Virus record (IMG/VR): IMGVR_UViG_3300031784_000006 | Strand: one strand, 5' to 3' | DNA from: a virus | Taxonomy: Duplodnaviria; Caudoviricetes | DNA length: 64,000 nucleotides | Part shown: one piece after another, positions 7,960 through 64,000 of the stretch | Layout: every line of letters begins with the position of its first letter | Position numbering within the stretch: position 1 is the first letter of the stretch | The notes under the pieces: model-generated | What the model was told of the DNA's origin: nothing | Databases searched by the model: none | Seen by the model: the letters and a program-made list of their open reading frames with translations, nothing else | Translations under genes and position numbers: made by a program

Positions 7960-7979
7960 CTTTTTTTAAATATTTAGAT

Positions 7980-8006
7980 AAAAAAAGAGGGTCCGAAGAC
8001 CCTCTT
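7980..8006 (-). terminator. Intrinsic terminator after gp23 with C(UUCG)G tetraloop
   Basis: AAGAGGGTC-TTCG-GACCCTCTT followed by T-run. Confidence 0.9.
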
Positions 8007-8025
8007 GAAATTTATGTGAAGCGGA

Positions 8026-9453: not shown

Positions 9454-9511
9454 TTGCTTTTACCTTTTTACTAAGTGTTTGTTTTTTGGGTTTGAATTAT
9501 ATTAAATTCAA

Positions 9512-10681: not shown

Positions 10682-10719
10682 TTGAACTCTCCGTTTAACC
10701 TTTAGTTATAAACTATATT

Positions 10720-10727
10720 TATTTATA
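10720..10727 (-). promoter_or_regulatory. T4-type late promoter TATAAATA for gp22-gp23
   Basis: Exact TATAAATA about 40 nt upstream of the gp22 ATG. Confidence 0.8.
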
Positions 10728-10737
10728 ATTTAATAAA

Positions 10738-11388
10738 TTACAATGAGTTTAAAAACTCATTGAATAATGATAACTTATATTCTTCAAGAATACCTTGGTC
10801 TACAAGGGTATTAATTTTATTCTTAGTATTTTCTGCCATTTTTTCTCTAAGGATGCCACCATCCCAAATCCACTCCTTTCCTTCCATAATTCCCTGAACA
10901 AATGCGTCGGGAGCTGAGGGATCTGCTACAATATCAGCAGCAGTTGCAAGCATAAAGTCTTCACCAACTTCTTTATATCCCTTATTATTCTCTCTTAAAG
11001 ACCCAATACCACGAGAAGAAACGCCAAGAGTTACTCCATCTTTAAGAAGAGACTCCGCAATCTTACCCATTGGTGTGGATAAAATTTGTGCCTTTCCGAT
11101 AAAGTTATTTCCGCTGCGATAAAGTTCTGTAATTTTATGAGAAACTCTATCTAAATTAACAGTAGGTCCGTCTGGATGTCCTAGTTCGCCAAGAGCACGT
11201 CCCTTTTGAACGTATTGTTCGTTATAACGATTTACTTCACGTTCCATAATCTGCATAGGATACATTCTTCCATTGCGATTCACGCATTCTGCTTGCAAGA
11301 ATGGTCCTTTAATGTAGAGTTTTGCTTGCTTACCAGTTCCTTCGGTAATAACCTCTACTCTTTCGATTTCTTCTCTAATTAGTTTCAT
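10738..11388 (-). CDS. gp21: Prohead core protease
   Basis: NRNGRMYP, ALGELGHP, LGVSSRGIGS, ADIVADPSAPDAFV. Confidence 0.97.
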   Translation of the reverse strand: MKLIREEIERVEVITEGTGKQAKLYIKGPFLQAECVNRNGRMYPMQIMEREVNRYNEQYVQKGRALGELGHPDGPTVNLDRVSHKITELYRSGNNFIGKAQILSTPMGKIAESLLKDGVTLGVSSRGIGSLRENNKGYKEVGEDFMLATAADIVADPSAPDAFVQGIMEGKEWIWDGGILREKMAENTKNKINTLVDQGILEEYKLSLFNEFLNSL

Positions 11389-11939
11389 TAGGCATCTCCT
11401 GAAATTTGTACTTGTTGGTAATACAGAGTTCCTGCACCTACACCGTATGCAGAAACTTTATTTGAATTAATTACAGTAGCATCTGTTGAAGAGAATGCTG
11501 TGACAATTCCACTTGAATTATAATTAACAGTCATTCGTGTCTGATAGTAACCACCTACCCCAGAAGAAATATCTACAGATAAAACTTGCTGGTGTGTGAA
11601 GTTGTAATATGATTGTCCTGTTGCAGTTAGTGTAACATAATCACCAACACCAAAAGGAACTTGAGTTCCTTCTGGAACTGTAACAATTGTTGTTGTGCCG
11701 GTAGTTATGCCTACAACTTTATTTGAAGCTTTTGTTAAACCTAGAGTGGCAGATTCTCCAGATGAAACATAGTAATCTGCAGAAGTTGCTGATGGATTTC
11801 CGCCTACAGAAATATGCGCTGCACCACCGACTGCAACCACTCTCAAAACACTAGATTGTACCGAAAAGGCAGATGATGTTGTTGCAGCACCTGCAGTAAA
11901 TGTAAATGAGGAACCCGCCCCAACTGGTCTATGAGCCAT
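11388..11939 (-). CDS. Hypothetical virion structural protein (beta-rich)
   Basis: 183 aa, Ser/Thr/Gly-rich, TAAATA upstream, coupled to gp21. Confidence 0.6.
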   Translation of the reverse strand: MAHRPVGAGSSFTFTAGAATTSSAFSVQSSVLRVVAVGGAAHISVGGNPSATSADYYVSSGESATLGLTKASNKVVGITTGTTTIVTVPEGTQVPFGVGDYVTLTATGQSYYNFTHQQVLSVDISSGVGGYYQTRMTVNYNSSGIVTAFSSTDATVINSNKVSAYGVGAGTLYYQQVQISGDA

Positions 11940-11993
11940 TATTTTTATAGTACACTTTTAGTTATTTATTATTTAATCAAGTTATGATTTAAA

Positions 11994-13268
11994 TTACCTC
12001 TGTTCAATCCAGTTCAGAACTGCAAGTGCTGCTTTGTTAGTATTAGGACTTGCACAAGCAAGAGTATAAGTATCACTAATTGTTCCAATACCACTTCTAC
12101 CTAACTGAAGTGCCGCTTTATCATCAAGATTAACTAGAGACCCACCACCACCAATCACAAAACCACTCAAAAGATCAGTTCCACCAGATACTGCAGTTTG
12201 AGTAATATTGTACTGCATAAAGGAGTTTGGGTCTGGATGGTCTACCCAAGTTCCTCCAGTTAGTGTTGCATTTTCTAAAAGTTGCCAATAAACATTAGTA
12301 TTATCATCAGTTGCTGCTTGCAATGATCTCAAAAGCATCACCGCACCTAGATTACTAGATTTTAGACGAATGCTTATAATTGGATAAAATGTATTTGCAT
12401 TTGCCATCGTTGTCCCTGCGATGGTATTTGATATACTCTCAAGAGTTCCAAGTTTCTCTGGTTCTCCTTCTTGAATCAGAGAATTAGAACCCTGATACAT
12501 GTAATGAGTTCCTGCAACACCTGTTACATTTTCTATCTCAAGTCTAATTGGTAAGAATGGAGTAGAACACCACACTCCTGGATTTGTATTTGAGTTCTCA
12601 AAAGTATGGGATGCAATGGTCTCATTCTTCATCAACCAATTGAACTGAACCATTCCTGCACCATACCATTCATAATTGATGGAAATCATTTGTTGTTTTG
12701 TTGGGTCTGCAGTCACTCCAGTCCAACCATTTCCATCAAACTTTTCACCATTCCAATCATCTCTGTATACTCTGGTTTCTGTAACAATTCCAGTTACACT
12801 ACTACGGAGTACATAAGAATATGTTCCCCCATTATCCTCAAAATAAACACCGTTGTTTTCATCAAACAATCCAAATCTTCTGCGAATACCTACCTGTGGA
12901 TTATCAAGACGAATCGCAAATGCAAGAGTTGCACCTCTACCGGGAATGTATCTCATCACATTCTTGGTTTGGCGAACAACTTTACTTCCAAGAGTGGACC
13001 CAACTTGCATCACAATATTACTGGCATTTGCATTAAATGTTGCAGTTCCAACTCCAACTACTCTTTCATCCCATACATCAGTCTCTTTACCATACTGGAA
13101 AGTGTTAAAGAATACTGTTTGATATGGAGATATTTTAAATCTGTTGTTGTTGGTAAATTGAGGTCTCCAGTCAGTCTGGTTTCCCCAGTGATCTGCAATA
13201 TTATAAACTTCAAAGAGACTTCTCTCTTGATTTAGAAAGTCTTGTGTAGTCTTATTCCACTGAGCCAT
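11994..13268 (-). CDS. Hypothetical virion structural protein, beta-sandwich/lectin-like
   Basis: 424 aa, Trp/Gly/Asn-rich, inserted in the head operon; no catalytic motif recognised. Confidence 0.55.
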   Translation of the reverse strand: MAQWNKTTQDFLNQERSLFEVYNIADHWGNQTDWRPQFTNNNRFKISPYQTVFFNTFQYGKETDVWDERVVGVGTATFNANASNIVMQVGSTLGSKVVRQTKNVMRYIPGRGATLAFAIRLDNPQVGIRRRFGLFDENNGVYFEDNGGTYSYVLRSSVTGIVTETRVYRDDWNGEKFDGNGWTGVTADPTKQQMISINYEWYGAGMVQFNWLMKNETIASHTFENSNTNPGVWCSTPFLPIRLEIENVTGVAGTHYMYQGSNSLIQEGEPEKLGTLESISNTIAGTTMANANTFYPIISIRLKSSNLGAVMLLRSLQAATDDNTNVYWQLLENATLTGGTWVDHPDPNSFMQYNITQTAVSGGTDLLSGFVIGGGGSLVNLDDKAALQLGRSGIGTISDTYTLACASPNTNKAALAVLNWIEQR

Positions 13269-45200: not shown

Positions 45201-48200
45201 CCAACATCTTCAATTTCAGAAACAACTATTTTTCCAATATTATCCGAATATGGACTTATAATTGCCTGCTTACCCTCTGATGATGAAATTGAAACTATTT
45301 TTGGCAGACTTTTATACTGACTTCCTCTGGACAATGCTCTAAAAGAATCTATTGGACCTTTTGCTGTAAAAGAATTAGTTACATATGATAATACTGCTTC
45401 TGAAGATAGATAGGACGAAACTTCTGGTCTTTTTGCTATATTGAATGAGAAAGTGGTAGAAGTTATTCCTGAAATAATATTATTTCCAGAAAAACCGCTT
45501 TCTTCAACTGAAATATGATTATTTGATAATATATTTACCGAATCTGCTATAATTTTTATATTATTTTCAATGTTCGTATTCGATGATACTGGTTTTAGTG
45601 TATAATATAATGATTTTGGAATGTTGTCAGAAACATATAAAGTGACTTTTGCATCTGTGGATATTCCAATTCTTCCACTTTTTTTAATTTCAAATGAATT
45701 TGTAAATTTTGAGGTATTGAAAATATTTTTAAAATCAGAATCTGTATAGAAATCAAAGTCAAATGAAGATGAGGGGATTGAATTGATTAAATGGCTTAAA
45801 GAACTGTCAGAAAGATCGAATTCAACTACTTGATTTCTAAATACGGAAATTTTGGGATTTACTGCCGACAAAACACCAAAACTTTGACTCGTTAAGTCTA
45901 TACAAATAGGTTCCGATAGTTTGGAATCGTAAAACGTTTTTGATAATTTGATATTATTACCATCAATAACAACCGCATAATATATTTCATTATCCACCAA
46001 ACCACCAACAGGTGCATTTGAAGTGTAAATAAGTTTCTGGCCGTTTTCGTATCCATGGGATAGAATTGTAATCGTATCTGTTGCTATATCTACATCAGAA
46101 GACAAAAATTCCTTAGGATTTGCAACTAATCTCTTATTGTAAGAATTATATTTTATAATATGAGTTACTGTATTTTTGGAAAGACATGTTAGCGAAATAC
46201 TATTATTAGTTTCTAGCCCATGAGTGGATGAAGTTGATACTGTTACTAAATTTTTTTCAATCTTACCCAAAATAATATCATTATAATTTGTTTTAAAACT
46301 ATGTAATACTCCGGTTCCAATTCCAGTAAAATATAAAGTACTTGTTGTAACTTCACTGTTTATTCCTACAAAATTTCCATTAGAACCAATACCAATAGGA
46401 TTAGTTGCAATACCTATTAAATTATCATTCACTACGGCTGCATATACTACTTGATTATTTTCTAATTGAAATGAAGATGTACCATCTGTTGAAATTGAAA
46501 TAGATGTATCACCACCATTAGAATATATTAGAGAATCTCCTGTATATAAATTGTGGTCTGGGAGAAAAATTGTTTTTGTTGGAATAAAGAGTGATGTTCT
46601 TCCTGTTCCCGGATTACTAAAAGATAATGTATAACCTATACCAACTCCGGCAACTGTCCCCAATCCTATGGAATCATTGGGGTTAAAATAAATTTGTCTG
46701 TTATATGATGGACTGTATATGGAAGATATTATTCCAACTCGGAATTCGAATTTTCTAGATTCTTGCTTGATAAGAGAAGATATTGTATGAGCAGAACCAA
46801 CAGAATTGTCATATTCCCTAAGAACTCTTATTCTAGTTAATTCTGGTTCTATATTCAATACCTTTACTTTTTCGGAACCAATTCCTAAAATATCATTTTC
46901 TCTTAGATATGGGTAGAATATAGCTCCACCAACATCAAAATAAGTTACTATTCCGGTAGAAGATGGAGTATCAACTGAAGAAATAAGAGTTAGAATATCA
47001 GTTCTCACTCCTACTCGATATGAACCATTTAAAAAACTACCGAAAGTGTTTATACCCGTAACGTTAATTATGTCAAAATCGGAAAGACCATGTGGATTTT
47101 CAGAAAATCCTACAATCAAACCTCTCTCTATAAAATTGCTGGGAATAAATTCTACATTTGTAATTGAAGTTGTACTGGAAGAAACTTGATTAATTTCTTT
47201 TCCTTTTAATAATGAAACTTCATAAGATGCCCCTTGCCCACCTCCAGTTAGTGTGTTATCAAAGATTATTCTATCACCTACTCTATAGTCAATTCCTGAA
47301 GAGTTAATTCCAATAAAATCTATCTCTCCCCTCTTTATTCTTTTTACTGAAGAATTTTGGGGTTTTATTTTATTACTATCTAATATGAAATCGTATCTAC
47401 TGCGAGAACTTTTCAACTTATATGGGTAAGTATTTCTTAAATATTTCCCAGTATTTAAATCAAAAGTATCTTGATTTATTTTTTTGGAGAAATTATCTTC
47501 TATTGGTAATGATTTGAACTCATTTCCAATAAAATATGGGAAAATTGGTTTTCTATAATTTCGTAAATTGTCAAAAAATTCAATAGAAGAATCATTTATA
47601 GTTGAAAAATATGCATAAACTCCATTAGGATATTCTGGAGTAATACAGAATCTACCATTGAATTGATCCAAATCTCCTGAGTTTGTATACTCATAATCTT
47701 CGCAGAAAAATCCAAGCGGATAATCTGATTTATTGGGTCTATTAGATTTTTCTATCAGTGAATATCCAGATTTTAATAACTTTATTGGACCACCCTCATT
47801 CGAAGAGTAACCATATGGGCCATAAATTGGATTTCCATCATAAGCCCATCCTATTATTGGAGAGTGTATATTTGATAATATTTCTTGTCCAGAATTTAAT
47901 ATTAGGTCTGGGATAAAGGATTCTACCGAGTTTATATTACTTCCTCTTCCAACAATTCTTCTCAAACTCCTTGGCGGATATGTGTGAGTATACTGCAATC
48001 CATTATCCGAATCAATAATAATACCGTCATCATCTGAGATAGAATTTAAAGTAATATCTCTTTCTACTAAATTTATTTTCCAAGTTTTGGTAACAGATTG
48101 TAGGTTACATCCAGAACCAGATGGAATAACATTTATTGTTATTGAAGTCGAAAATCCTGTTCCTCCATCAATAACTTTTACTTCCTTAATTTGGCCATCA

Positions 48201-51200
48201 GAAACAATAGGGGTTAATATTGCTCCAGATCCTTTTCCATCACTTACAATTTCCAATGAAGGTGGAGAATTGTATTCTGTGCCTCCGTTAAAAACTAGAA
48301 CCTGGCTAATTTTACCAGAAGAAACAATAGGGAATAACTGTGCATTTTTTCCAGTTTTTAAAGTAAAATTGGGTTGCCTATTAAAGTTTATAATATCTTC
48401 TGAACCATAATTAAATCCTCCAGTTTCTATGAATACTGACTTAATTTCTCCTTTAAAAATTGGTTGTAAAGTGGCATCTAATTTGTGCGAAGTTAATGTC
48501 GATACTCCAATAACTCCAGTTATGTTTACTGTAATTGGTTCATAATTAAAAGTATGTTTTCCAGACCCAGTTGTTTTGAAATTTTCATACTGATTAGTAG
48601 CAAAATAAAAGTCATTATTTGTAGATAATCCAACTACAGCTGATCCTATACCTATAGTTGAAGAAGTTCCAACTCTAGATAACTTAAAAGAATTTTCATC
48701 TACTTCTGTAACGTAATATGATTTTCCTGAGGAAAGACCTACTATCTCTTGTTCTGTTGCGTTATATACTACAATCTCCCCAGTTTTATATCCATGCTCT
48801 GGTGCATAAACCGTGTTGGAACTAGTAATAATACCTGTTGGGAATACAGAAATTTTTCTATTCTTATATCCAGTTCCTTTATCAATAACTTTTACCAGAC
48901 CTATTTTTTTCTTGAAGATTGCTGAAGAGAATTCATGAATACCTACTCCATAAGAAGTTAAAGTAACCGTATTAATCCCCGCAAAAGCATCATCTGAGGT
49001 GGTATGTAACTTTATTGTACTGTCATCTAAGATAGAAGCATAATATGTTGATTCTGTAGTTAGTCCACCTATTGCCTGTTGATTTTTTGTTTTATAAACA
49101 ATCGCTTCAGAATCTTGGAAATTGTGGAATGTTGAAAATCCTATGGTATTATTAGTTAAGTTGACTAAACCTGAAAAATCGGTAGAATCAAAAGGTATTT
49201 TATATTCGTAAGAAATTAATTCAGATTCTACTTTTGCTCCACTTCCTCCGCCACCAGATATTGTTATTGTTGGTGGTTGTAAATAATTAAATCCACCATT
49301 AATAATCTGAATACTATCTAAATCCCCCTCAATACCACAATAACCATTAGCACCCACTCCAACCGAATCCTCAATGGACAGAACTGGTGGAGAAATAATA
49401 TCGTAATCATTTTCTGATGACAATACGTTTATTTTTTCTATAGGTCCATAAAAAATATTATTTTTTGATTTGTAATTTAAAATTTCAACACCATTTATCA
49501 GTATTCCTGTAGTTCCTGGTTTAGTTTCATATTTTTCTACAGTATCTTGTGGTTCTTTAATAGTTTTTAATAACTTCTGAGATTGTAAATCTTTATTATA
49601 AAACTCAGAATCTATAATTACATTATCTATCGCTGTACCAGAAACTTTTATATAACTATTTTTATATAAATTTTCTCTACTTCTCGCTAATTTTATTTTT
49701 GTAGAACTAATCTTTCTTACAAAATAAATTCTTTCTTCCAGTTCTTTATTAAAGTCTGCATCAAATAAATTATTTTCGATAAGCTCTGAATTTGGGACAT
49801 ATATAACAGAATTTCCTGTTAAAAAATAATGTGTTCCTATTTCCAATTCTTCTTGTTGTTTGTAACTTCCACTGAAAACATTTTTTCCATTAGTTGTTTC
49901 TAAATCCAAATCAAAGTAATTTGGAAGAGATGATGCAGATATTAAATATGTACCTTTTCTGTCTCCATAAACATTTTGAACATCTGAAGTGTAAATTTTA
50001 GAATTTGGAAAATTTTTAAATTTACTTTTAGATAAAATCTTTTCGACACTGTATACTCTAGAAGCATCTATTTGCCCCTGACCACTCACGTTAAATGATT
50101 TTGAATTTATAATCGATATAACTGAAGAATTTATAGAAGGACCATTCGTTAAATGTATGACAATTTTATCCCCTATTCTTAAAAAATTATCTTCAAAAGT
50201 CTTAAATGTATAAGAAAATGAAGAAATATCAACTAAAGATACTGATTCCACATCATAATTTATTGGAATATTAAAAAACCAATTATTTGCAGCAAATTGG
50301 GTTTCATCTTCACCGAGAGTATCTATTTTTATAATGTCATTTTCGGAAAAAAGTTTTGTGTTTGAGTTAATATTTAAATCAGATAAAACACCAGTTACTC
50401 TAAATTTTACGATATTACTCGTCCCAACACCTGCATAGGAATATGCATAAGAATCTATTCTTATATCCTGTTTTGGTGGAATAGTTTGCGAAATTCCACT
50501 ACATTCATAGAATTGAGTAAGAGATTTTGATTTATAAGTGATAACTAGAGAACTACCATTTTTTAATTTTGCAACTAAAGTTCCTTGATCAGGAAATCCT
50601 ATAGTGGAATCGACATCTATTACGCTTGAACCTATAGATACTTGGGAGGTTACTTTTGTTATTGGGTGTATTGAAAATTCTCCTTGTTCAGATGTTTCTG
50701 AATCTGGAGTATAGTCTAAACTAATAGAATAGTATTCTTTTTCACCACGAAGAATTTTTTCAATATTGTTTATTGAACCAAATGCTTTTTGGGATGTTTG
50801 AGTTTCATCTTGATATATTGTTCTATTTAAAACATCATTGACAAATTCCTCATTTTCTAATACCTCAACAACTAATCTTTTTACAACTCTATAATCAGAG
50901 TTTGATGGTATAAAAAGATAGTCTCTTGGCTTAATTACTTTTATTTCGTCGCCATAAAGTGCTTTAAATAAAATTTTAAAAGACTGGTCTGTTCCTTTCG
51001 ATGAATAGAAATCTTTGGCTTGTTTAATGAAAAGATTTTCATTTAAACCCGAATATAAAGTTCTATTTTCAAATCCTGGTGTGAATTGAGATTTTACCTT
51101 ATTAAAAAATTCACCCAAAAGTAAAGAACTGAGATTTACAACTTTAGATTGCTCTAAATGCTCAGTTATATTTGTTGATGAAAAAATTAGATTTCCTGAA

Positions 51201-55945: not shown

Positions 55946-56004
55946 AAGTTAAAATAACCTTCAACATCAATTTTAACAGTCTATATATGCTTTTGTCAAT
56001 TTAC

Positions 56005-56205
56005 CTAATGCGAAGAATTCAATACAACTTCTTTGCTCAGAACTAGCTCTTCATACTGCAAATCTTCCCTACAAATATTCATATCAAGAAACTCAACCAT
56101 TCTGTGCAACATCTCCCAGGTCTCAGAAAATTTTTCCTCTGATAAACTGTGATAGATGCACCTGTCCTTTGCATATATGTGATATACCTTCTCTTCTTTT
56201 CTCAT
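56005..56205 (-). CDS. Hypothetical protein
   Basis: 66 aa ORF in gene-flow orientation. Confidence 0.6.
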   Translation of the reverse strand: MRKEEKVYHIYAKDRCIYHSLSEEKFSETWEMLHRMVEFLDMNICREDLQYEELVLSKEVVLNSSH

Positions 56206-56225
56206 AAAAAAATTTTCCGGAATTT

Positions 56226-56372
56226 TTATTTAACCATCGCATTATATATCATTACTATCAGTACTCCAAGGGGCACTCCAATGATTCGGAATACCTTCCC
56301 CGGATACCGTATTAACCACCCCTCAAAGACAACCTTCCAAAAATTCCAATAGGGGGTTTTTTGTCTTCTCAT
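56226..56372 (-). CDS. Small membrane protein (48 aa)
   Basis: Hand translation MRRQKTPYWNFWKVVFEGWLIRYPGKVFRIIGVPLGVLIVMIYNAMVK; hydrophobic C-terminus. Confidence 0.65.
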   Translation of the reverse strand: MRRQKTPYWNFWKVVFEGWLIRYPGKVFRIIGVPLGVLIVMIYNAMVK

Positions 56373-56521
56373 ACCTTCCGGAAAATTTTTAAGAGATTGA
56401 TATAGCTCGGTCGATTTGTCACCTCTGTAGGTTAGGGTAGTTTGGGTTTTTTATAACCGCAACGCCGCCGCGACGATATAAACGAACGGCGCAAAACACT
56501 GCCGAACCACTGTCATCACCA

Positions 56522-56550
56522 AGCATAACATAAGTGCCCCTCAGTGTCAA
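56522..56550 (-). promoter_or_regulatory. sigma70-type promoter embedded in a hairpin
   Basis: TTGACA-17 nt-TATGCT; GTGCCCCT/AGGGGCAC inverted repeat spans the -35. Confidence 0.7.
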
Positions 56551-56575
56551 CCAAGGGGCACACAGTTAGACTATA

Positions 56576-56746
56576 TCAGAACGCGATTTCCTCCAGAGTA
56601 GGAATACCCAGAGCAGACTCAAGTTGCGGCGACTCGATATAATCAAAACCACTCACATTATCAGCAGTGAGTGCATCCAGAATGGACAGAATCTCGCTGC
56701 CAGTGTTACCTTGTGCCAGCAGAGAAAGAAGAACTTGCTTGGACAT
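56576..56746 (-). CDS. Hypothetical protein (start corrected to MSKQVLL)
   Basis: 56 aa; track ORF 56576..56806 extends into the promoter region. Confidence 0.6.
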   Translation of the reverse strand: MSKQVLLSLLAQGNTGSEILSILDALTADNVSGFDYIESPQLESALGIPTLEEIAF

Positions 56747-56878
56747 AATAAAGAAGAAAAGTGTTGTGAACTGTGTGTTGGGTGAGAGTGTCCCTAGTCC
56801 TCTCATTGTAGCAGTTGTGCTACTTCCTGGAACGTGCCTAGTTTATACTCATGCGACAGGAGTGAGTGTTACTTAAGA

Positions 56879-57136
56879 CTAGAAATCAAACACGTCAGAG
56901 TTAATCTGAATCACGTTAACTTTCGGGTCCTTGAATGATACTCCATCAGGCGTCTTTAGTGAGTTGAAAGAACACGCCTCTAGTGCATCTACGAAGTCTT
57001 CATAGTTACCTGCTTCCATCGCAAGGTGATACAAACCCTCATCATTGTTAATCCAGAGAGCAACATTCCAGGTCTCATAATTCTCCCAACCATTATACTC
57101 AGTGGAGAGAATGTTGCGTTGATAAGTGGTAGTCAT
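56879..57136 (-). CDS. Early hypothetical protein
   Basis: 85 aa, YNGWENYETWNVALWINNDEGLY motif; first gene after repeat copy 1. Confidence 0.75.
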   Translation of the reverse strand: MTTTYQRNILSTEYNGWENYETWNVALWINNDEGLYHLAMEAGNYEDFVDALEACSFNSLKTPDGVSFKDPKVNVIQINSDVFDF

Positions 57137-57207
57137 CTGTGAGTGGTTGTCCTTACACTATGGGGACAATCTCAGGGGCCCAATAATACTCACTCAGTCG
57201 GTATGAG

Positions 57208-57381
57208 TTACCACTTATCAGGACGGCTGAGGTCTTCCACATAAGCTGACACACGCTCAGCTGGTTCCAATTTGAATACTTTATCCCAGTCAAGTTGATG
57301 CGGGTCGAAGTCTTCGAAGACCTCAAGCTCTAGAGTGACCCTATAACGCTGCTTCTGGGCTTGGCGATACGCAACCGACAT
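57208..57381 (-). CDS. Early hypothetical protein (57 aa)
   Basis: Hand translation MSVAYRQAQKQRYRVTLELEVFEDFDPHQLDWDKVFKLEPAERVSAYVEDLSRPDKW. Confidence 0.7.
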   Translation of the reverse strand: MSVAYRQAQKQRYRVTLELEVFEDFDPHQLDWDKVFKLEPAERVSAYVEDLSRPDKW

Positions 57382-57410
57382 AAGTGTGCTCCGTGAGTGT
57401 TACTGTGGCT

Positions 57411-57439
57411 ACTATAAGATGCTGGGGGCAATGTGTCAA
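57411..57439 (-). promoter_or_regulatory. sigma70-type early promoter
   Basis: TTGACA-17 nt-TATAGT, 30 nt upstream of the ATG at 57381. Confidence 0.8.
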
Positions 57440-57513
57440 GACCTTGGGTGTATTTATGAGGGGTGTTGATATTTTATGAGGGTGATTGTGGGGATTTGGA
57501 AACGTCGGGGTGC

Positions 57514-57542
57514 TTGACATTTTGGAGAGTGTGTGATAGCTT
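57514..57542 (+). promoter_or_regulatory. sigma70-type promoter on plus strand, divergent from 57411-57439
   Basis: TTGACA-17 nt-TAGCTT; no credible plus-strand ORF follows. Confidence 0.55.
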
Positions 57543-57562
57543 GCACGCAAAGATCACAAGAC

Positions 57563-57660
57563 CTAGAAGGATTTAAAAGGCATAAGTTACGGGGTCTAGA
57601 AGGATTTAAAAGGGCTTTATTCCACAGATTCCACAAGCTTTTCCACAAGGCTGTTGAAAA
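57563..57660. repeat. Two 18-bp direct repeats followed by four DnaA-box-like 9-mers (candidate origin)
   Basis: CTAGAAGGATTTAAAAGG at 57563 and 57596; TATTCCACA 57618, GATTCCACA 57627, TTTTCCACA 57639, reverse TTTTCAACA 57652-57660. Confidence 0.6.
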
Positions 57661-57734
57661 CTCAGCTATATTTAAAAAAGGCTTTATTAAACGTTTTAAT
57701 ACATTTTTGACACTAAATCACGTTTTTAGGCATT

Positions 57735-57760
57735 AAAAAAGAGGGGTTAGATCCCCTCTC
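57735..57760 (-). terminator. Intrinsic terminator closing the early cassette region
   Basis: GAGGGG-ATCTAA-CCCCTC followed by TTTTTT on minus strand. Confidence 0.8.
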
Positions 57761-57769
57761 TATGTGTAT

Positions 57770-58006
57770 TCAATCAAGTGCTAATCGGTAACGAGCATAA
57801 TCCTCTGCATCGCTACGTTTGCGGAATCGTGCTTCTTCACCTTCAAATCGTAGAGGCAAATACCTATACTTCTTGCCTTCCTTCGTCATAACAATTCGGG
57901 AGAATAGGTGCAGTGAGTAACTACCATCCTCACTTCTTTCCTTCTCTTTCTTTACAATGAAGGGGAGAACTTGTTGATCGTTGAATGATGCTTTGGAGAG
58001 TAACAT
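57770..58006 (-). CDS. Early hypothetical protein
   Basis: 78 aa ORF ending just before the terminator. Confidence 0.6.
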   Translation of the reverse strand: MLLSKASFNDQQVLPFIVKKEKERSEDGSYSLHLFSRIVMTKEGKKYRYLPLRFEGEEARFRKRSDAEDYARYRLALD

Positions 58007-58037
58007 TTTGGAAAAAAGTATAATGAACTGGAGTGAA

Positions 58038-58175
58038 TCAGTATGTCATAATGGTTGCAATCGTTCCTGCTCGTGTATAGAAATCAACCATTCTTTCTGC
58101 TTCATTGTAGGTACTGAAACCTTGAAACTTCCATCCTTGAGAGTAAGGACAAAACCAGCGAATCGTTGTTCTCAT
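58038..58175 (-). CDS. Small early protein, paralog of 58172..58306
   Basis: Hand translation MRTTIRWFCPYSQGWKFQGFSTYNEAERMVDFYTRAGTIATIMTY. Confidence 0.65.
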   Translation of the reverse strand: MRTTIRWFCPYSQGWKFQGFSTYNEAERMVDFYTRAGTIATIMTY

Positions 58176-58306
58176 TGTGTTACTAATTCAGCAGGACTAC
58201 CACACGATTTATAGAACTCTATCATGCGTTGTGCTTCATCAAGTGTAGAGAATGATTGCGTTCTCCATTGTTGTTGATAAGGCGTAAAGTAGCGAATGGT
58301 GAACAT
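58172..58306 (-). CDS. Small early protein, paralog of 58038..58175
   Basis: Hand translation MFTIRYFTPYQQQWRTQSFSTLDEAQRMIEFYKSCGSPAELVTQ. Confidence 0.7.
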   Translation of the reverse strand: MFTIRYFTPYQQQWRTQSFSTLDEAQRMIEFYKSCGSPAELVTQ

Positions 58307-58578
58307 CAGAACTTATCCATCCATTGTTGAATCTTTTGCAGTGCAGTTGGCTCATCATTGCACTTACACTTGCGGAACTTGGTTGTATTCAAACCTTTTG
58401 AAATCAGTTCCAGTTTGCCATCAGCAAGACAGAAGATTCCATATCGTGAGTTATGGAAAATGTTGTTAATCCAGGAATCTTGAGTATCAGCACTGACCTT
58501 AAAAAAGATCGAAGTGTGATTAGCAAGAGTGCTATTGTCGATGTGGAGATAAGGGAAAGACATTTGGGAAGTGCTCAT
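58306..58578 (-). CDS. Early hypothetical protein
   Basis: 90 aa; ATG lies inside repeat copy 2, alternative start at 58563. Confidence 0.7.
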   Translation of the reverse strand: MSTSQMSFPYLHIDNSTLANHTSIFFKVSADTQDSWINNIFHNSRYGIFCLADGKLELISKGLNTTKFRKCKCNDEPTALQKIQQWMDKF

Positions 58579-58616
58579 ACTACTAGGACAATCTCAGGGG
58601 CCCAGTATTTGTTAGG

Positions 58617-58790
58617 TCAGTCGTTTGAAGTGTGAAGAATGGAGATCATCTTTTGGTAATAGTTGTCTGCTTCTACCTCACATTGATGAGATTCGTTTGC
58701 ATCTTCAATCTCATATTGTTTCATATTAAGACGATGAATAACGCTTTCTAGAAGATCAGTCAGTGCTTCAATCTTTTGTGCTTCAGTCAT
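58617..58790 (-). CDS. Early hypothetical protein (57 aa, helical)
   Basis: Hand translation MTEAQKIEALTDLLESVIHRLNMKQYEIEDANESHQCEVEADNYYQKMISILHTSND. Confidence 0.65.
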   Translation of the reverse strand: MTEAQKIEALTDLLESVIHRLNMKQYEIEDANESHQCEVEADNYYQKMISILHTSND

Positions 58791-59107
58791 TAGTTAAGCA
58801 CCATACCTTCAGTGAAAGGAACTGTGTTGCCATTATCAATCACAAACCATTCAAAGTCACGTTGAAAGATACGGGCATCATTTCCGTGAACTTTCAGAAT
58901 AGCATTGAGACGTGATTTGGTGGTAACAGTCTTATACCCACAGGTGTAAAGTTCAAGGAAGGTATCACCAATCGTTGCGATATGATTGCCATGAAGCATA
59001 ACATATGAAGCATCACGTTCGGGCGAATAAGTTACCTCAGTGTTGTCATTTTTCCAGTCTTTGCAATCACAGATTGCTTTGTTCATTTGGAGTTCAATCT
59101 TACGCAT
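58790..59107 (-). CDS. Early hypothetical protein
   Basis: 105 aa, MRKIELQMNKAI..WKNDNTEV, LHGNHIA, TTKSRLNAIL. Confidence 0.75.
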   Translation of the reverse strand: MRKIELQMNKAICDCKDWKNDNTEVTYSPERDASYVMLHGNHIATIGDTFLELYTCGYKTVTTKSRLNAILKVHGNDARIFQRDFEWFVIDNGNTVPFTEGMVLN

Positions 59108-59161
59108 GGTTGGAAGTTCAGTGGTTATACTACAGGGACAATCTCAGGGGCCCAGTTTCTA

Positions 59162-59362
59162 TCAGGCAGCGATTGCAGACTCCAGACATACCTCACGGGT
59201 TTCGAGAAGTACATAATCGAACTCAGATTCTAACTGCTTCAGGTAAGCATCTGCAGCGGAGAAGCAATCAAACAAGCGGAGAGATTTGAAGTCTTCACCT
59301 TCATAATCAATGCCACCAATTACAGCATAAACTTTAGACATTTGGAAAGCGTTGGTGTTCAT
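59162..59362 (-). CDS. Early hypothetical protein
   Basis: 66 aa; ATG inside repeat copy 4, alternative start MSKVYAV. Confidence 0.7.
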   Translation of the reverse strand: MNTNAFQMSKVYAVIGGIDYEGEDFKSLRLFDCFSAADAYLKQLESEFDYVLLETREVCLESAIAA

Positions 59363-59407
59363 ACTATAGGGACAATCTCAGGGGCCCAGTTTTTATCAAC
59401 TTTTGAT

Positions 59408-59533
59408 TTATTCTTCAGATATATGACAAAACTCCATCAAATAGTAATCAATACTGATGCCAAGTTCGATTGCTTCGTCTTTGATTTCCTCGTAAATGTT
59501 TTCAGGAATTGTATGATATTCAGTCTCAATCAT
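59408..59533 (-). CDS. Small acidic early protein (start corrected to MIETEYH)
   Basis: 41 aa; GGAGG 10-15 nt upstream; track ORF 59408..59659 overlaps another ORF. Confidence 0.6.
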   Translation of the reverse strand: MIETEYHTIPENIYEEIKDEAIELGISIDYYLMEFCHISEE

Positions 59534-59675
59534 GGTCAATTTCTCCTCCTTTGATTTCAACATTTTCAAGAATAGTGACGATAGAATTGTTTGGGGTAAG
59601 ATACTGAACTTGTAAAACATTCGGTGCAATTTCAGTCGCTCCGATAATGGTTGATGCAATCAGAAGTTCAATCAT
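59526..59675 (-). CDS. Small early protein (49 aa) with hydrophobic N-terminus
   Basis: Hand translation MIELLIASTIIGATEIAPNVLQVQYLTPNNSIVTILENVEIKGGEIDHD. Confidence 0.6.
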   Translation of the reverse strand: MIELLIASTIIGATEIAPNVLQVQYLTPNNSIVTILENVEIKGGEIDHD

Positions 59676-59782
59676 TGTGGCGAAATAATGTCTGCTACAG
59701 TGTGCAATGCGCTTGCAGTAGTGTTGCGAACTCCAGGTGATAAAATACTCGCAACGATGAAGATTAACAGAATTGTCTTCAA
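59672..59782 (-). CDS. Small hydrophobic peptide (36 aa, TTG start)
   Basis: Hand translation (M)KTILLIFIVASILSPGVRNTTASALHTVADIISPQ; coupled to both neighbours. Confidence 0.45.
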   Translation of the reverse strand: MKTILLIFIVASILSPGVRNTTASALHTVADIISPQ

Positions 59783-59976
59783 TTTACTACGTCGTAGCGA
59801 AGTGATTTTATGCACCATCCTGTATTGTTTGTGATAACATCTGCAAGACAATCCTCACCATCAGGTGAATCCCACAGACAATTCTTTGCATCATTTACAA
59901 TCTCATCTTTCTCTTCTTCAGTGAGATCTTCGTAGTCAAAATCAAACTCAATTTCAGTTACTTTGTAGAAGTTCAT
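59779..59976 (-). CDS. Early hypothetical protein
   Basis: 65 aa; first gene after repeat copy 5. Confidence 0.7.
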   Translation of the reverse strand: MNFYKVTEIEFDFDYEDLTEEEKDEIVNDAKNCLWDSPDGEDCLADVITNNTGWCIKSLRYDVVN

Positions 59977-60029
59977 TGTGGTTTCTCAGTGCTTATACTA
60001 CTAGGACAATCTCAGGGGCCCAGTTTCTA

Positions 60030-60620
60030 TCAGAACAGATTGCGACCAAAAGATCCACACAAATAAAACGCCATTCCCTTATCCTTAAGCGTCACACCTG
60101 CAAATGTCAGAGGTACATAGCGGCCGTTGGTTTTAGATGCTTTCGTGCGAATCTGCAGCAATCCGTTAGGTCCAGTGATGGTTCCTAGTTGTTTACCAGC
60201 ATCGAAAAGTGTGCGAATGCTGTTACAAATGAACTCATAATCCTCACGCAATTCTTGATAGTGCTCCGCATGAGTTTCCTCATTCAGAATAGCGGAACCC
60301 ATATAATCGTTCTCACGAGTGAATCCAACATACAGAGTTTGCTTTAGTTTCTGCCCGACTTTGCTATCATCAAACGAGACAGAATCTTCGATGATTTCAG
60401 ATAGACAATGCTTCAACTGTGTGGCAGCAATCGACTCTCCAACTGTGAAAGTCTTAATTTCCCCATCTTCCAGATCTTGCAGGTCAGAAGAGTTAGGAAC
60501 TCCCAGTGCAATTTCTAACAGTTGCCCACGAGCACCTTTGTTCTTTCCTGGTTTATCAAATGCACTGAAGTCAGTAACATTCAGTTTCGCAAATACTTCG
60601 TTCGTTGTCAGTTTTGGCAT
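60030..60620 (-). CDS. MutH/Sau3AI-like PD-(D/E)xK endonuclease
   Basis: NKGARGQLLEIALG..SDLQDLEDGEIKT parallels MutH NKGWIGVLLE.WLG..QDF...GVELKT; C-terminal LLQIRTKA..AFYL..SF parallels MutH LQIRPKA..GFYLKKNF. Confidence 0.8.
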   Translation of the reverse strand: MPKLTTNEVFAKLNVTDFSAFDKPGKNKGARGQLLEIALGVPNSSDLQDLEDGEIKTFTVGESIAATQLKHCLSEIIEDSVSFDDSKVGQKLKQTLYVGFTRENDYMGSAILNEETHAEHYQELREDYEFICNSIRTLFDAGKQLGTITGPNGLLQIRTKASKTNGRYVPLTFAGVTLKDKGMAFYLCGSFGRNLF

Positions 60621-60667
60621 CGTGGTTGTGCTCTTATACTACAAGGACAATCTCAGGGGCCCAGTTT

Positions 60668-60907
60668 CTATTGCCCAACAAGATCGTTTGCAACTTCATC
60701 ATCATAGATTTCGCGGATTTCTTCAATCAACTCATCTACAGTTTCAAACTGTTTCGTGAGGTTATCAATGAGAGTATCAAGTGCAAACTGTTCGAGAGAT
60801 TTGTAATCCATACCATCCAAAATCATCTGAGCATAGTTCTCAACAACAGTGCTAAAATCAGGAGTCATTTCAGTCATTTTGTTTGTGGGATTAGGAAGGG
60901 AAATCAT
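60668..60907 (-). CDS. Acidic early hypothetical protein
   Basis: 79 aa, YAQMILDGMDYKSLEQFALD. Confidence 0.7.
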   Translation of the reverse strand: MISLPNPTNKMTEMTPDFSTVVENYAQMILDGMDYKSLEQFALDTLIDNLTKQFETVDELIEEIREIYDDEVANDLVGQ

Positions 60908-61125
60908 TGAATAACAGTGTTCACATCAGGATTGAAAGTAACCTCATGGAGCACATCAAAATCATCACTCATCTTGACATAATTCCAGAGAGTGTCAGTC
61001 TCATCATCCACATTTTCCTGATAAAGGTGAATGAAACCGTCATCATCTTGTTTTACATAACAACCATCATAATTTTCATCATCAAATACATAACCAGATG
61101 CAATCAGTGCGTCAGTAAAAGTCAT
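60904..61125 (-). CDS. Acidic early hypothetical protein (ATG start at 61125)
   Basis: MTFTDALIASGYVFDDENYDGCYVKQD.. Confidence 0.7.
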   Translation of the reverse strand: MTFTDALIASGYVFDDENYDGCYVKQDDDGFIHLYQENVDDETDTLWNYVKMSDDFDVLHEVTFNPDVNTVIQ

Positions 61126-61127
61126 AA

Positions 61128-61301
61128 TCAATCAACAACAGAGTAACAGGCAACCCAGGAAGGAATACCCGAAAGTGCTAAAGAACCGTTGCGGTCGTCG
61201 CAATACTCTTGGGCATCATCTTCACTGTAGAAAGGTCCAACATACTCAGGAGAATTGAGTGCATTGGAATCGAATCGAACTGTGAAAGTGGTTTGTGTCA
61301 T
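61128..61301 (-). CDS. Early hypothetical protein (57 aa)
   Basis: Hand translation MTQTTFTVRFDSNALNSPEYVGPFYSEDDAQEYCDDRNGSLALSGIPSWVACYSVVD; only ATG is inside repeat copy 7. Confidence 0.65.
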   Translation of the reverse strand: MTQTTFTVRFDSNALNSPEYVGPFYSEDDAQEYCDDRNGSLALSGIPSWVACYSVVD

Positions 61302-61330
61302 ACTACAGGGACAATCTCAGGGGCCCAGTT

Positions 61331-61504
61331 TCAATAACCGTTCAGAAAGTCAGCAAGTGCTTCCTGATACTCAGCTTCAGTCTCAAAGGTACGATAACCA
61401 ATCGTGCAAGGAAAGGTACGCTTTGAAGCAGAAGCTTTAGGCAGGTCACGACACTTATCGAGAACCTGTTGCTTGTAAGGATTGGCGTTGTAGTTAGTGT
61501 TCAT
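61331..61504 (-). CDS. Early hypothetical protein (57 aa)
   Basis: Hand translation MNTNYNANPYKQQVLDKCRDLPKASASKRTFPCTIGYRTFETEAEYQEALADFLNGY; fills the interval between copies 8 and 7. Confidence 0.65.
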   Translation of the reverse strand: MNTNYNANPYKQQVLDKCRDLPKASASKRTFPCTIGYRTFETEAEYQEALADFLNGY

Positions 61505-61531
61505 ACTATAGGGACAATCTCAAGGGCCCAA

Positions 61532-61675
61532 TTACTTAAACGTTGCATTGACACCAATCACCTTTGCTGTAGGATTTCGTGCTGTTGCTGTTTCGCGGGC
61601 ATCTTTTGGGGAGTTAGCATACACTTCCTCTTTGAAGACTTTACCACCAACGTAGAGTTGAACTTCGTATTTCAT
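61532..61675 (-). CDS. Early hypothetical protein (47 aa)
   Basis: Hand translation MKYEVQLYVGGKVFKEEVYANSPKDARETATARNPTAKVIGVNATFK. Confidence 0.7.
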   Translation of the reverse strand: MKYEVQLYVGGKVFKEEVYANSPKDARETATARNPTAKVIGVNATFK

Positions 61676-61866
61676 AGTGTTTGAAACTCCTGTGCTTCTT
61701 TGATGTTAGAATTGAAAAACTTTTGGAAGATGGAATCAATCACAGGATACCATTCTTCGTTACCACTTGGGTATCCACATTCTCGTGCTTGATTGAGAAA
61801 CTTTAAGATGCAAGTTTCCTCATTAGCAGTGAACTCAACGCGATTGAAAGTGTAACCGTCAGTCAT
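61672..61866 (-). CDS. Early hypothetical protein
   Basis: 64 aa ORF coupled to neighbours. Confidence 0.65.
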   Translation of the reverse strand: MTDGYTFNRVEFTANEETCILKFLNQARECGYPSGNEEWYPVIDSIFQKFFNSNIKEAQEFQTL

Positions 61867-61868
61867 AA

Positions 61869-62144
61869 TCAGTTCACCGATTCTTGGTAGATTGACATAC
61901 CCTTACGCATAGAAATGTAGTCATCAATCATCTCACCAATCTGTTCATAAACGTAGGAAGAACCTCCTACATCACAGAGCACATCTTCAGTGAGTTGTTT
62001 AGAGAAACGCACTTCCTTATCATTAGCATCAAACTCAAAGACATCCTCTTGAGTGTATATAAACGCAGCACAACCTGCGTCTTCACCTTGTTGCTCAATC
62101 AGTTGGTTGATTGAATCACGGAGTTGGGAAAGTGTGCGGAACAT
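61869..62144 (-). CDS. Early hypothetical protein (start corrected to MFRTLSQ)
   Basis: 91 aa; track start overlaps the upstream ORF. Confidence 0.65.
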   Translation of the reverse strand: MFRTLSQLRDSINQLIEQQGEDAGCAAFIYTQEDVFEFDANDKEVRFSKQLTEDVLCDVGGSSYVYEQIGEMIDDYISMRKGMSIYQESVN

Positions 62145-62146
62145 AA

Positions 62147-62311
62147 TCAGGAATAAACAGGAATAGAGGTGATTTCTTTCCACTCTCGTGGGAAGATTTC
62201 GTTGGCAATTTTTTCGTTCAGTTTGACACAGTTGAGAGGTTTGATGTTACTTTTGCGTTGGAACTTCTCAACAGTTCCATCTCTAAACTCAACGCGAATG
62301 TTGTAAAGCAT
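62147..62311 (-). CDS. Early hypothetical protein (start corrected to MLYNIRV)
   Basis: 54 aa; begins 2 nt after the upstream stop. Confidence 0.6.
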   Translation of the reverse strand: MLYNIRVEFRDGTVEKFQRKSNIKPLNCVKLNEKIANEIFPREWKEITSIPVYS

Positions 62312-62313
62312 AA

Positions 62314-62553
62314 TCAAGCAGGAAGGATACAGAAAGTGCCACACCAACCGCGAACCCAGTTTAGAGTTTCATGGTAAGATGTGCGAGGATTGCTCATCTC
62401 CATCTTGGAACCGTTGCTAGGATTGTATGCAACAGCGACATAGAGATTGTCGCACTCTTTATCAGTGATTTGCTCAATCCACATTTGATTGACTTTACCT
62501 TCCTTCCAATTTGTGTGGTAGGAGTAGACTTCGGAAACGATGGTGTTGCTCAT
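62314..62553 (-). CDS. Early hypothetical protein
   Basis: 79 aa; ATG inside repeat copy 9. Confidence 0.65.
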   Translation of the reverse strand: MSNTIVSEVYSYHTNWKEGKVNQMWIEQITDKECDNLYVAVAYNPSNGSKMEMSNPRTSYHETLNWVRGWCGTFCILPA

Positions 62554-62586
62554 ACTATAGGGACAATCTCAAGGGCCCAGTTTCAA

Positions 62587-62841
62587 TCACCAGCGGCCTT
62601 GTTGAATGAGAATCTTTTTTATCTCAGTATAAATGAACTGACGAAGTTTAGCGTCTGTGGTGTTATCAAGAGCATAATACAGTCGATTCAGATACTCATT
62701 CTGCGTAAGACCTATGTTACCATCACCACCAATCTCATTGAGTGATGAACCTGCTTTAGCTTTGGGGCGTCCAAAGTTACCTGTGACGTTGCCAGATGTC
62801 CTCAGTTTGGGACGAATCTTTGAGAGGTTAGAGTAAGTCAT
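62587..62841 (-). CDS. Early hypothetical protein
   Basis: 84 aa, YSNLSKIRPKLRTSG..GNFG. Confidence 0.7.
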   Translation of the reverse strand: MTYSNLSKIRPKLRTSGNVTGNFGRPKAKAGSSLNEIGGDGNIGLTQNEYLNRLYYALDNTTDAKLRQFIYTEIKKILIQQGRW

Positions 62842-63020
62842 TCATCTTCCTCATAAGGGAACATTTCGTCATACTCTTCGTCTGTGAGAGTAAGATACTG
62901 AACGTTAGCATTTTTGTGCTCTTCAGCATACACCAACTGATAATGTGCGAAAGAAGAAGGGTCAGAACTAGCAAACTCTAGCAGACCATCAACAAAACAA
63001 AGGTAATTCATGTTACTCAT
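62838..63020 (-). CDS. Acidic early hypothetical protein (start corrected to MSNMNY)
   Basis: 60 aa; ATGA-coupled on both sides. Confidence 0.65.
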   Translation of the reverse strand: MSNMNYLCFVDGLLEFASSDPSSFAHYQLVYAEEHKNANVQYLTLTDEEYDEMFPYEEDE

Positions 63021-63448
63021 TTTGCGTACAGATAACCACCAGACCAATCAGCATTTTCCAGCAGATATTCACGATCCTTTATCAATCGCAAATCATAACG
63101 AACACCTTTCGCAGGAGATTTCCAGGAGGCAGACTTATACATTTCACCAGTGTTCTTATCAATGAAGCAATGAACAGAGCGAGACATACCACTGGTAATC
63201 ATAATCACTTTATGATACTTTTTACCAGTTTCAATCTCATACTCAATAGGACAAAATCCACTCTTGAGTTCATCAATACAGCGCAGATGATACTCTACAC
63301 TTTCACCACGCTCCGCAGAACGCTGATGCCCACGAATAGCGTACTGACGATAATTGTCTTTCAGTGCTTCAATCAGCAGCAGAGTATTCTTAAGGACGCT
63401 TTCTGCGATAGTTTGTTGTGCTTGTGCTTGCATCGTAGGAGTGCTCAT
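63017..63448 (-). CDS. Early hypothetical protein
   Basis: 143 aa, ETGKKYHKVI..RSVHCFIDKNTGEMYKSASWKSPAKGVRYDL; ATG inside repeat copy 10, alternative start at 63433. Confidence 0.75.
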   Translation of the reverse strand: MSTPTMQAQAQQTIAESVLKNTLLLIEALKDNYRQYAIRGHQRSAERGESVEYHLRCIDELKSGFCPIEYEIETGKKYHKVIMITSGMSRSVHCFIDKNTGEMYKSASWKSPAKGVRYDLRLIKDREYLLENADWSGGYLYAK

Positions 63449-63475
63449 ACTATAGGGACAATCTCAAGGGCCCAG

Positions 63476-64000
63476 TTACCAACTCTTTGCAAGAGTGAAG
63501 TTCAACCTGCTAAACTCTTCACGATTCACAATCTTGTAAGACCCAAACTTGTTGTGCATTACGAATCCTTCGTGATCGCTGAGTTCACCATCAATCTCAC
63601 AAGTAATGTCAGTGTCAGACTCAATGAAGCAGAACAAATCCATCTTGATAGACTCAACCAACTTCCAAAGCCGCATCAGGTTGATGTCAACATCATAATT
63701 TTCTGCAATTTCATGCTCATCCACCTCCTTACCCTCACGAACGTAGGAATTGATGATTTTTTTGAGTTCTGCTGCTTGCTTTACATTCACGAACTCACAA
63801 AGTGTGCTCATTTGCTTGGCAAACTTGCAGAAGTCTTCAATATCATCACGGAAGGGACAAATAGACACACTAGGTTGCACAAACAAGCATTTTTTAGTGC
63901 TTGCAAACTTACCCACGATAGGATGAGCTACCATCTCAGGCAGACGCTCACCAGTGTAATATGTGTGAGGGGCAATGATAATCTCCTGACGAACAATCTC
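63476..64000 (-). CDS. C-terminal part of a ligase-like (nucleotidyltransferase-fold) hypothetical protein; 5' end outside window
   Basis: Frame is open from 64000 (EIVRQEIIIAPHTYY..) into track ORF 63476..63934; ends HEGFVMHNKFGSYKIVNREEFSRLNF. Confidence 0.5.
   Translation of the reverse strand, partial: EIVRQEIIIAPHTYYTGERLPEMVAHPIVGKFASTKKCLFVQPSVSICPFRDDIEDFCKFAKQMSTLCEFVNVKQAAELKKIINSYVREGKEVDEHEIAENYDVDINLMRLWKLVESIKMDLFCFIESDTDITCEIDGELSDHEGFVMHNKFGSYKIVNREEFSRLNFTLAKSW

Follow-up and report, generated by a model that had tools for sequence, protein, structure and literature searches.

We analysed a stretch of 64,000 nucleotides (hereafter the window) from the viral record IMGVR_UViG_3300031784_000006, which belongs to an uncultured freshwater cyanophage and is present in many lake and freshwater metagenome runs. 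Between positions 57155 and 63476 it holds ten copies of a short intergenic element, each placed in front of small genes, and the element is one lineage's version of a widespread, apparently uncharacterised family of promoter-like elements in cyanomyoviruses. We lean towards reading the element as a promoter without a -35 hexamer that is used by the host RNA polymerase, with a -10 at TATAGT/TAGTAT and with an upstream box that would be read by a putative lineage-matched factor. We infer that the element acts as a promoter, that transcription starts about 6–9 nt after the -10 and does so early, and that a reader protein exists.

The pattern AYTGGGCCCYTGAGATTGTCC-N3-TAGTRT matches the window ten times without any mismatch, always on the minus strand, and it was found in none of 100 dinucleotide shuffles of the window; a looser pattern for the 3' half gave no copy beyond the ten in the 64 kb. 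The copies (E1 to E10, Table 1) are spaced 203–1422 bp apart with one to five short minus-strand open reading frames (ORFs) per interval. Every copy is intergenic and points in the direction of the genes, the preceding stop codon lies 0–10 nt upstream of it, and the ATG of the next gene either overlaps its last bases (TAGT-ATG) or follows 15–20 nt further on. A sequence-only reading of the same DNA had already described the ten ungapped copies, their spacing, the nearby stop codons and the small-gene cassettes that they head, and all of this was recovered with the same figures. The 30-bp element of that reading is also real, but conservation within the clade reaches about 45 bp, the block being TGAnnnnAAC-TGGGCCCCTGAGATTGTCC-CTA-TAGTAT-RAGCAC in 43 unique copies that come from the window phage and its nearest relatives, with 14 of the 19 core positions invariant in these copies. 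No hairpin is shared by the ten copies with their 40-nt upstream flanks and their folds are no more stable than those of shuffles (z -0.8 to +2.2), in agreement with the earlier statement that the stem-loop of PeSL cassettes is missing. The sequence after the element is G-poor and unstructured.

The earlier description of the element as nearly invariant turned out to need correction, and the element is not peculiar to this phage. Intergenic regions of the cultured phage S-SM2 carry AAAGGGGGGTCGCCTAAAGCGTCCCTATAGTATGAGCAC before several small genes, and its last 19 nt are identical to the window element. A blastn search of cultured phages with one window element came up empty, as other lineages have just 19 nt in common with it. 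Scanning viral contigs with GTCCCTATAGTRTRAGCAC matched at least 119 stretches, and the family came to at least 448 unique copies in at least 142 viral loci; all family-wide fractions below are among these unique copies from the loci examined. Their 3' half reads AAAGT/GAGATT-GTCCC-TATAGT-RT-RAGCAC and the family consensus is GGGnCC-Tt-n-AAAGT-GTCCC-TATAGT-aT-gAgCAc, where AAAGT is strongly conserved though it lies outside the search pattern. We refer to it as the 'GTCCCTATAGT' family of cyanomyovirus intergenic elements, defined by this 3' half, an intergenic position, the orientation of the genes and a start codon inside the element or at most 40 nt downstream, and all ten window copies belong to it. 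The picture is therefore that of a family with an invariant 3' half, a variable 5' box and hundreds of copies, S-SM2 included.

Cultured carriers are S-SM2, with about nine copies over the 15 kb from the helicase gene to gp25-gp6-gp7 in a setting syntenic with the window, and SynMITS9220M01; S-B05-like phages probably carry the family as well. It was not found in Syn9, S-PM2, P-SSM2, P-SSM4, P-HM2, DSL-LC02 and S-SRM01, each of which was examined. Infection transcriptomes are available for Syn9, S-PM2, P-SSM2 and P-HM2 (PMC5780444), none of which carries the family. The exact motif is not one of host genomes: when 185,579 species genomes were scanned for an exact 17-mer, cyanobacteria gave no match and the 40 single matches fell in unrelated, mostly high-GC taxa, which is about the number expected by chance, and a metagenome scan gave chance singletons only beyond the known contigs. 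In the relatives of the window phage degenerate copies with TACTAG or TATTAG replacing TAGTAT precede the helicase gene. Upstream of the helicase gene of S-SM2 (GU071095, 51925–52030; about 4780–4885 in our locus L015) we also noted a degenerate element, AAGCGTCCCAGTAGTGT, followed within 40 nt by a canonical TTGACA-17-TATACT promoter, so two promoter types would stand there in tandem before one gene.

The 10–12 nt upstream of AAAGT fall into at least seven discrete box types across the family, namely GGGGCC, GGGGGG(A/T)CG, CTGGGCCC (the type of the window), CTCACC, TGAGCCA, GATCGTCC and RGCC. Among the loci with at least three copies, 89 hold a single box type and 7 are mixed, and at the junction orthologous to E4 one relative has the GGGCCCTGTAAAGT subtype in place of GGGCCCCTGAGATT. 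By inspection GGGAC...GTCCC or GGGTCGC...GCGTCCC could pair in some lineages, and a family-wide hairpin was rejected because other box types (CTCACC, TGAGCCA) are unable to do so.

Several features of the element argue for a promoter. In the window the GC-rich box AACTGGGCCCC occupies the -35 position. The hexamer 17 nt upstream of the -10 is AACTGG, which matches TTGACA at none of the six positions, and a standard sigma70 promoter scan called none of the ten elements but did call the nearby TTGACA-17-TATAGT; the elements are thus without a -35, as had been claimed, and the box lies exactly at -35 to -24. In the clade the positions of TAGTAT that matter in a TAnnnT -10 are kept, T22 in 43 of 43 copies, A23 in 41 and T27 in 39, which together with the intergenic position and the gene orientation upholds the earlier description as promoter-like. 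For the family as a whole, the overlapping TATAGT is a better reading of the -10 than the TAGTAT proposed before. A single canonical sigma70-type promoter is present in the array region, at 57439–57411, and it has the same -10 TATAGT as the elements and a similar sequence after it (AGCCAC compared with AGCAC). At orthologous junctions the elements show 90% identity compared with 79% for the coding flanks.

We propose that each element would form a compact intergenic boundary of transcription units. It would supply or abut the stop codon of the preceding gene, hold a promoter for the host RNA polymerase in which the -10 directly follows the family-wide block (AAAGT or GAGATT, then GTCCC), and contain the start codon of the next gene or be followed by it after about 15–20 nt. 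The putative box-reading factor might be encoded by the phage, perhaps delivered with the virion, or be a host factor. Reading the minus-strand sequence, we found one clear terminator downstream of E1–E9, a GC-rich hairpin with a T-run at 57735–57760, which the terminator scan had listed (as 57740–57761) on the plus strand only. Since no clear terminator follows E1–E9 before this point, the ten promoters may fire in tandem into one read-through unit that ends there. This would lead to strong expression of the small accessory genes in the hyperplastic region, probably at an early stage of infection.

Some observations weigh against this promoter model, and it is mainly because of the embedded in-frame ATG, not addressed by the sequence-only reading, that our confidence in its simple form is not higher. 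An ATG or GTG is present at the TAGT-ATG position in 257 of 448 copies, and the frame starting from it is open for at least 35 codons in 233 of these 257, compared with 22% for the other two frames. In the clade this ATG is the start of at least 13 unrelated gene families, several of them without an alternative start. A sigma70-type start from the -10 of the element would lie 4–9 nt downstream of the embedded ATG, and such genes would therefore need read-through transcripts from upstream promoters, which is possible in a tandem array without terminators but odd for half of the copies. The predicted 5' untranslated regions are about 9–15 nt long and have no Shine-Dalgarno sequence. That a genome has a single box type could result from co-evolution of the box with a lineage-matched factor, or equally well from gene conversion that homogenises the copies. 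No candidate reader protein was identified, and no phyletic-pattern search for one was made. RNA contigs from two small metatranscriptomes merely bridge E9 and E10 at a depth of 2–6, with possible carry-over of DNA; the contigs from these two lake samples of 2017 cover 57143–57314, 57391–57574, 58498–58577, 57269–57485 and 63042–63195 and give neither 5' ends nor strand.

The start of the gene behind E2 has moved into the element, judged from the orthologue of one relative that starts 20 nt downstream, and part of the embedded-ATG signal may be an avoidance of out-of-frame upstream ATGs. Two observations fit such an avoidance: 44% of the genes that start at the embedded ATG have a second methionine exactly at codon 6, and copies that lack this ATG read TAGTATAAG, with an extra stop codon, ahead of a gene start about 17 nt further on (mode 17 nt). 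Whether the embedded ATG is used is unrelated to how far away the previous element lies. An N-terminus of the type MST(T)/MNT(T)/MSNT recurs in many unrelated small proteins, with MSTT being the commonest (53 of 232) and examples in the window at 63448, 62553, 61504, 61301, 59362 and 58578, because the start codon and the next codons fall inside the conserved element.

The embedded ATG is also the reason for considering a rival that places the start site at this ATG or upstream of it, and more generally a role at the RNA level, which we regard as unlikely. The element would then be a translation-initiation or leader module, a RegA-type operator or a processing site in a long polycistronic early mRNA from promoters further upstream, and regA is indeed a core gene of cyanomyoviruses (PMC2984593). 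Such a role would agree with the genuine in-frame start in about half of the copies, with the preferred distance of the start codon in the others, with a second methionine exactly at codon 6 in 44% of the ATG-type genes compared with 2.8% of controls and with the G-poor, unstructured region after the element. However, the most conserved block is GC-rich, reaches 30–40 nt upstream of the ATG and includes the lineage-specific box, which is neither Shine-Dalgarno-like nor A/U-rich; moreover, TATAGT is retained even where the ATG is 15–40 nt away, and the same TATAGT with AGCCAC follows the perfect TTGACA at 57439. A variant, included in the same estimate, takes the hexamer nAAAGT/GAGATT as the -10 of a near-leaderless mRNA that starts around TATAGTATG; the A and T at the second and sixth positions of nAAAGT are conserved, but the hexamer has no first T and reads GAGATT in this clade. 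The embedded ATG would also be explained if the promoter served a single-subunit T7-type or another phage-encoded RNA polymerase with its start at the G of TATAG, giving mRNAs that begin with GUAUG. With the promoters of the T7 group the elements share an almost identical core around TATAG, conservation over about 23 bp (roughly -17 to +6) and lineage-specific specificity positions, and TCCCTATAG matches the T7 promoter from -8 to +1 (TCACTATAG) at 8 of 9 positions. Against this, the lineage-specific box lies upstream of -17, and the complete genome of S-SM2, with its roughly nine copies, has no match to PF00940 (T7-type RNA polymerase), although a control search finds the Syn5 polymerase at E = 4e-77; the fragmentary related contigs have no such gene either. 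The sole sigma-like match of S-SM2 is an ORF of 181 aa that is most likely the late sigma gp55. With the cognate polymerase gene absent from a complete carrier genome we rejected this reading for the family and hold it to be highly improbable, and the resemblance to T7-group promoters is probably coincidental since TATAGT is also a good -10. A likeness to the Syn5 promoter (ATTGGGC...) was dismissed as coincidence as well, as it concerns the first 7 nt only and in the window E3 and E10 only, plus related contigs.

That the element is mainly a recombination site, either a short homology for phage recombination as proposed for PeSLs or a site-specific target, with its uniformity caused by gene conversion and its promoter look being secondary, seems quite improbable to us, even if part of the evidence points in this direction. 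In a comparison with a related 69-kb contig the homology is interrupted a few nt at most from E3, E4 and E8, and the contig lacks 58307–58652, a segment made up of E9, the 90-aa gene behind it and the final 12 codons of the gene upstream. Strain-variant contigs in two DNA runs have 40 nt in place of the same segment, which is thus polymorphic in the population. In addition, identical elements precede unrelated genes, and one box type per genome is what concerted evolution would give. On the other hand, indels also occur at element-less junctions, for example an insertion of 394 bp exactly at 62841/62842, and gene adjacency inside arrays was kept at element and plain junctions in fractions of 0.33 vs 0.46, 0.27 vs 0.22 and 0.15 vs 0.23, which do not differ reliably, with two of the three bootstrap intervals including 0 and with crude gene calls. 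The element has no dyad symmetry or structure like that of attC or att sites, its strict orientation and the fixed register of the start codon point to expression signals, and lineages that differ in the box share the invariant 3' half. The recombination handle proposed by the sequence-only reading remains hypothetical: a number of breaks in synteny, and a single cassette polymorphism in the population, end at an element, but adjacency is lost about equally where there is no element. Elements can also act as short homologies for gain, loss and swapping of genes, because each cassette carries the same 30–45 bp, and we see this as a by-product and not as a demonstrated function. In the contigs, the only material available for this, no circle or deletion junction could be established, and two joints were set aside as uninformative, the sole element-to-element joint 60008/61569 with its 21-nt side inside the repeat and the joint 58613/60873 with a 39-nt side of 90% likeness. 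In one relative (L007) the 90-aa gene of E9 is the second gene of a different cassette.

For the promoter reading that we prefer, the question is who reads the box. According to the literature, none of alt, mod, motA and asiA is found in cyanomyoviruses, and how these phages control their early and middle transcription has been called unresolved (PMC2984593; also PMC3152331). The complete S-SM2 genome gave no match to the MotA C-terminal domain (MotCF) or to AsiA. The suggestion that a phage-specific factor reads the GC-rich core is plausible, and the idea of such a dedicated reader is strengthened by the finding of essentially one box type per genome. A more specific model, which we offer tentatively and consider possible though doubtful, is a lineage-matched recognition system in which an unrecognised protein, possibly delivered with the virion, reads the box at the -35 position and recruits the host RNA polymerase to the universal AAAGT-GTCCC-TATAGT core, and in which box and reader co-evolve into at least seven specificity types.

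The layout resembles the PeSL cassettes that are known from the T4-type phages RB49/phi1, T4/PST and KVP40/nt-1 (PMC2839356; PMC4122927). In both cases a composite intergenic element recurs in the hyperplastic regions of T4-like genomes, stands before one small ORF or a few of them and ends in the region of the start codon. Some indels and replacements between relatives also lie next to the cyanophage elements (breaks at E3, E4, E8 and E9), but others lie at element-less junctions. In contrast to PeSLs, the cyanophage elements have no stem-loop and no sigma70 -35; for these reasons they are not PeSLs. No GGAG-like Shine-Dalgarno sequence was seen in their leaders, where the start codon is inside or 14–40 nt after the element. 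Moreover, the cyanophage copies are far more identical to one another and have a lineage-specific box, and breakpoints are not significantly enriched at them. With the middle promoters of T4-type phages, which include the PmSLs of phage nt-1 (PMC4122927), the elements share a TAnnnT -10 and a non-sigma70 box at the -35 position that implies a dedicated reader. Unlike in these promoters, however, the -30 region reads GGGCCCC, with no relation to the MotA box that is centred there, (a/t)(a/t)(a/t)TGCTTtA, conservation extends over the entire spacer, neither MotCF nor AsiA was matched in S-SM2 and the genes behind the elements look like early accessory genes. The elements resemble MotA-type promoters in logic only.

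A different upstream element is found in Syn9, DSL-LC02 and S-SRM01, in which a dyad GTGACAGT-N6-ACTGTCCAC is followed after about 33 nt by TATTCT/TATAAT-ATAAGAG. It occupies the same kind of junctions (small genes, helicase upstream of the baseplate module), has a similar -10 with an ATAAG start region and, like the present family, combines the lack of a sigma70 -35 with a conserved extra module upstream. This module, however, is a dyad about 54 nt upstream of the inferred start site, whereas the block of the present family abuts the -10. From these arrangements we infer that both are phage-specific promoter classes of cyanomyoviruses. The Syn9-type element probably corresponds to the putative middle promoter described by Weigele 2007, to the 'novel early regulatory element' of Doron 2016, or to both; Doron et al. 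reportedly found a new kind of regulatory element at the early genes of Syn9 and host-like promoters at its middle genes, which we use as a lead only. Our literature search for the Syn9 early motif found no sequence. The window itself has a Syn9-type copy at about 790–847 on the minus strand (dyad GACAGT-N6-ACTG(T/G)C(AC), about 33 nt, TATAAT/TATTCT), and other copies are located at about 300–355 in L012, at 46300–49160 in Syn9 (L274), at 8089–11290 in DSL-LC02 (L013) and at 3879–12700 in S-SRM01 (L014). In the window copy and in some others the dyad and the -10 are separated by a terminator-like hairpin (GAGGGTTTCACGACCCTC + T7), so that the composite resembles a PeSL.

All large ORFs of the window are on the minus strand, and since gp6, gp8, a DUF4815 protein, the large terminase and the tail sheath are among them, this is a cyanomyovirus of the T4-like kind. 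Behind the elements, the small genes are members of the Kyanoviridae families Kyano_Gp96, DUF7717, DUF7249 and DUF6267, and the small genes of the array show 70–80% DNA identity to Synechococcus myophages. The equivalent region of S-SM2 has the order helicase, many small genes, gp25, gp6, gp7, which identifies the array as the known hyperplastic small-gene region upstream of the baseplate module. The G+C content is 39–43% in the array (56000–64000) compared with 29–35% in most of the structural module (1–54000). Between the terminator of the array and the canonical promoter a stretch of 330 bp within 57400–57760 is non-coding; it contains two exact 18-bp direct repeats CTAGAAGGATTTAAAAGG at 57563 and 57596, and low-depth metatranscriptome contigs cover its part upstream of the TTGACA promoter. 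The features of the array are listed in Table 1.

Table 1: Element copies and neighbouring signals of the array in the window (ATG, start codon within the element).
Feature	Position	Strand	Remarks
E1	63447..63476	-	ATG at 63448 starts 143-aa DUF7717 gene
E2	62552..62581	-	ATG starts 79-aa gene; orthologue in one relative starts at ATG 20 nt further downstream
E3, ATTGGG variant	61503..61532	-	ATG is sole start of 57-aa gene
E4	61300..61329	-	ATG is sole start of 57-aa gene; box GGGCCCCTGAGATT
E5, TAGTATAA type	60636..60665	-	196-aa gene starts 17 nt downstream
E6, TAGTATAA type	59995..60024	-	followed by 65-aa gene
E7	59361..59390	-	ATG starts 66-aa gene
E8, TAGTATAA type	59127..59156	-	followed by Kyano_Gp96 gene
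E9	58577..58606	-	ATG starts 90-aa gene
E10, ATTGGG...TAGTGT variant	57155..57184	-	followed by DUF7249 gene; last copy of the array
Intrinsic terminator GAGAGGGGATCTAACCCCTC + T6	57735..57760	-	GC-rich hairpin and T6 run, read from the minus-strand sequence
Canonical sigma70-type promoter TTGACA-17-TATAGT, then AGCCAC	57411..57439	-	promoter scan and sequence reading

In summary, the element family is a concrete and very well-conserved candidate signal for early or middle control in T4-like cyanophages, and its lineage-specific module implies a specific reader. As the family occurs in the cultured pairs S-SM2/Synechococcus WH8017 and SynMITS9220M01/MIT S9220, this is a directly testable question. 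The elements also mark the boundaries of accessory-gene cassettes that differ between co-occurring lake strains and are therefore useful for annotating and comparing genomes of uncultured cyanophages. If they are merely strong host-type promoters, this would be ordinary phage biology with a dense array of early promoters in the hyperplastic region. If a lineage-matched recognition system does exist, it would be analogous in function to the sigma appropriation by MotA and AsiA but unrelated to it, and it would explain how early transcription proceeds in phages without alt, mod, motA and asiA.

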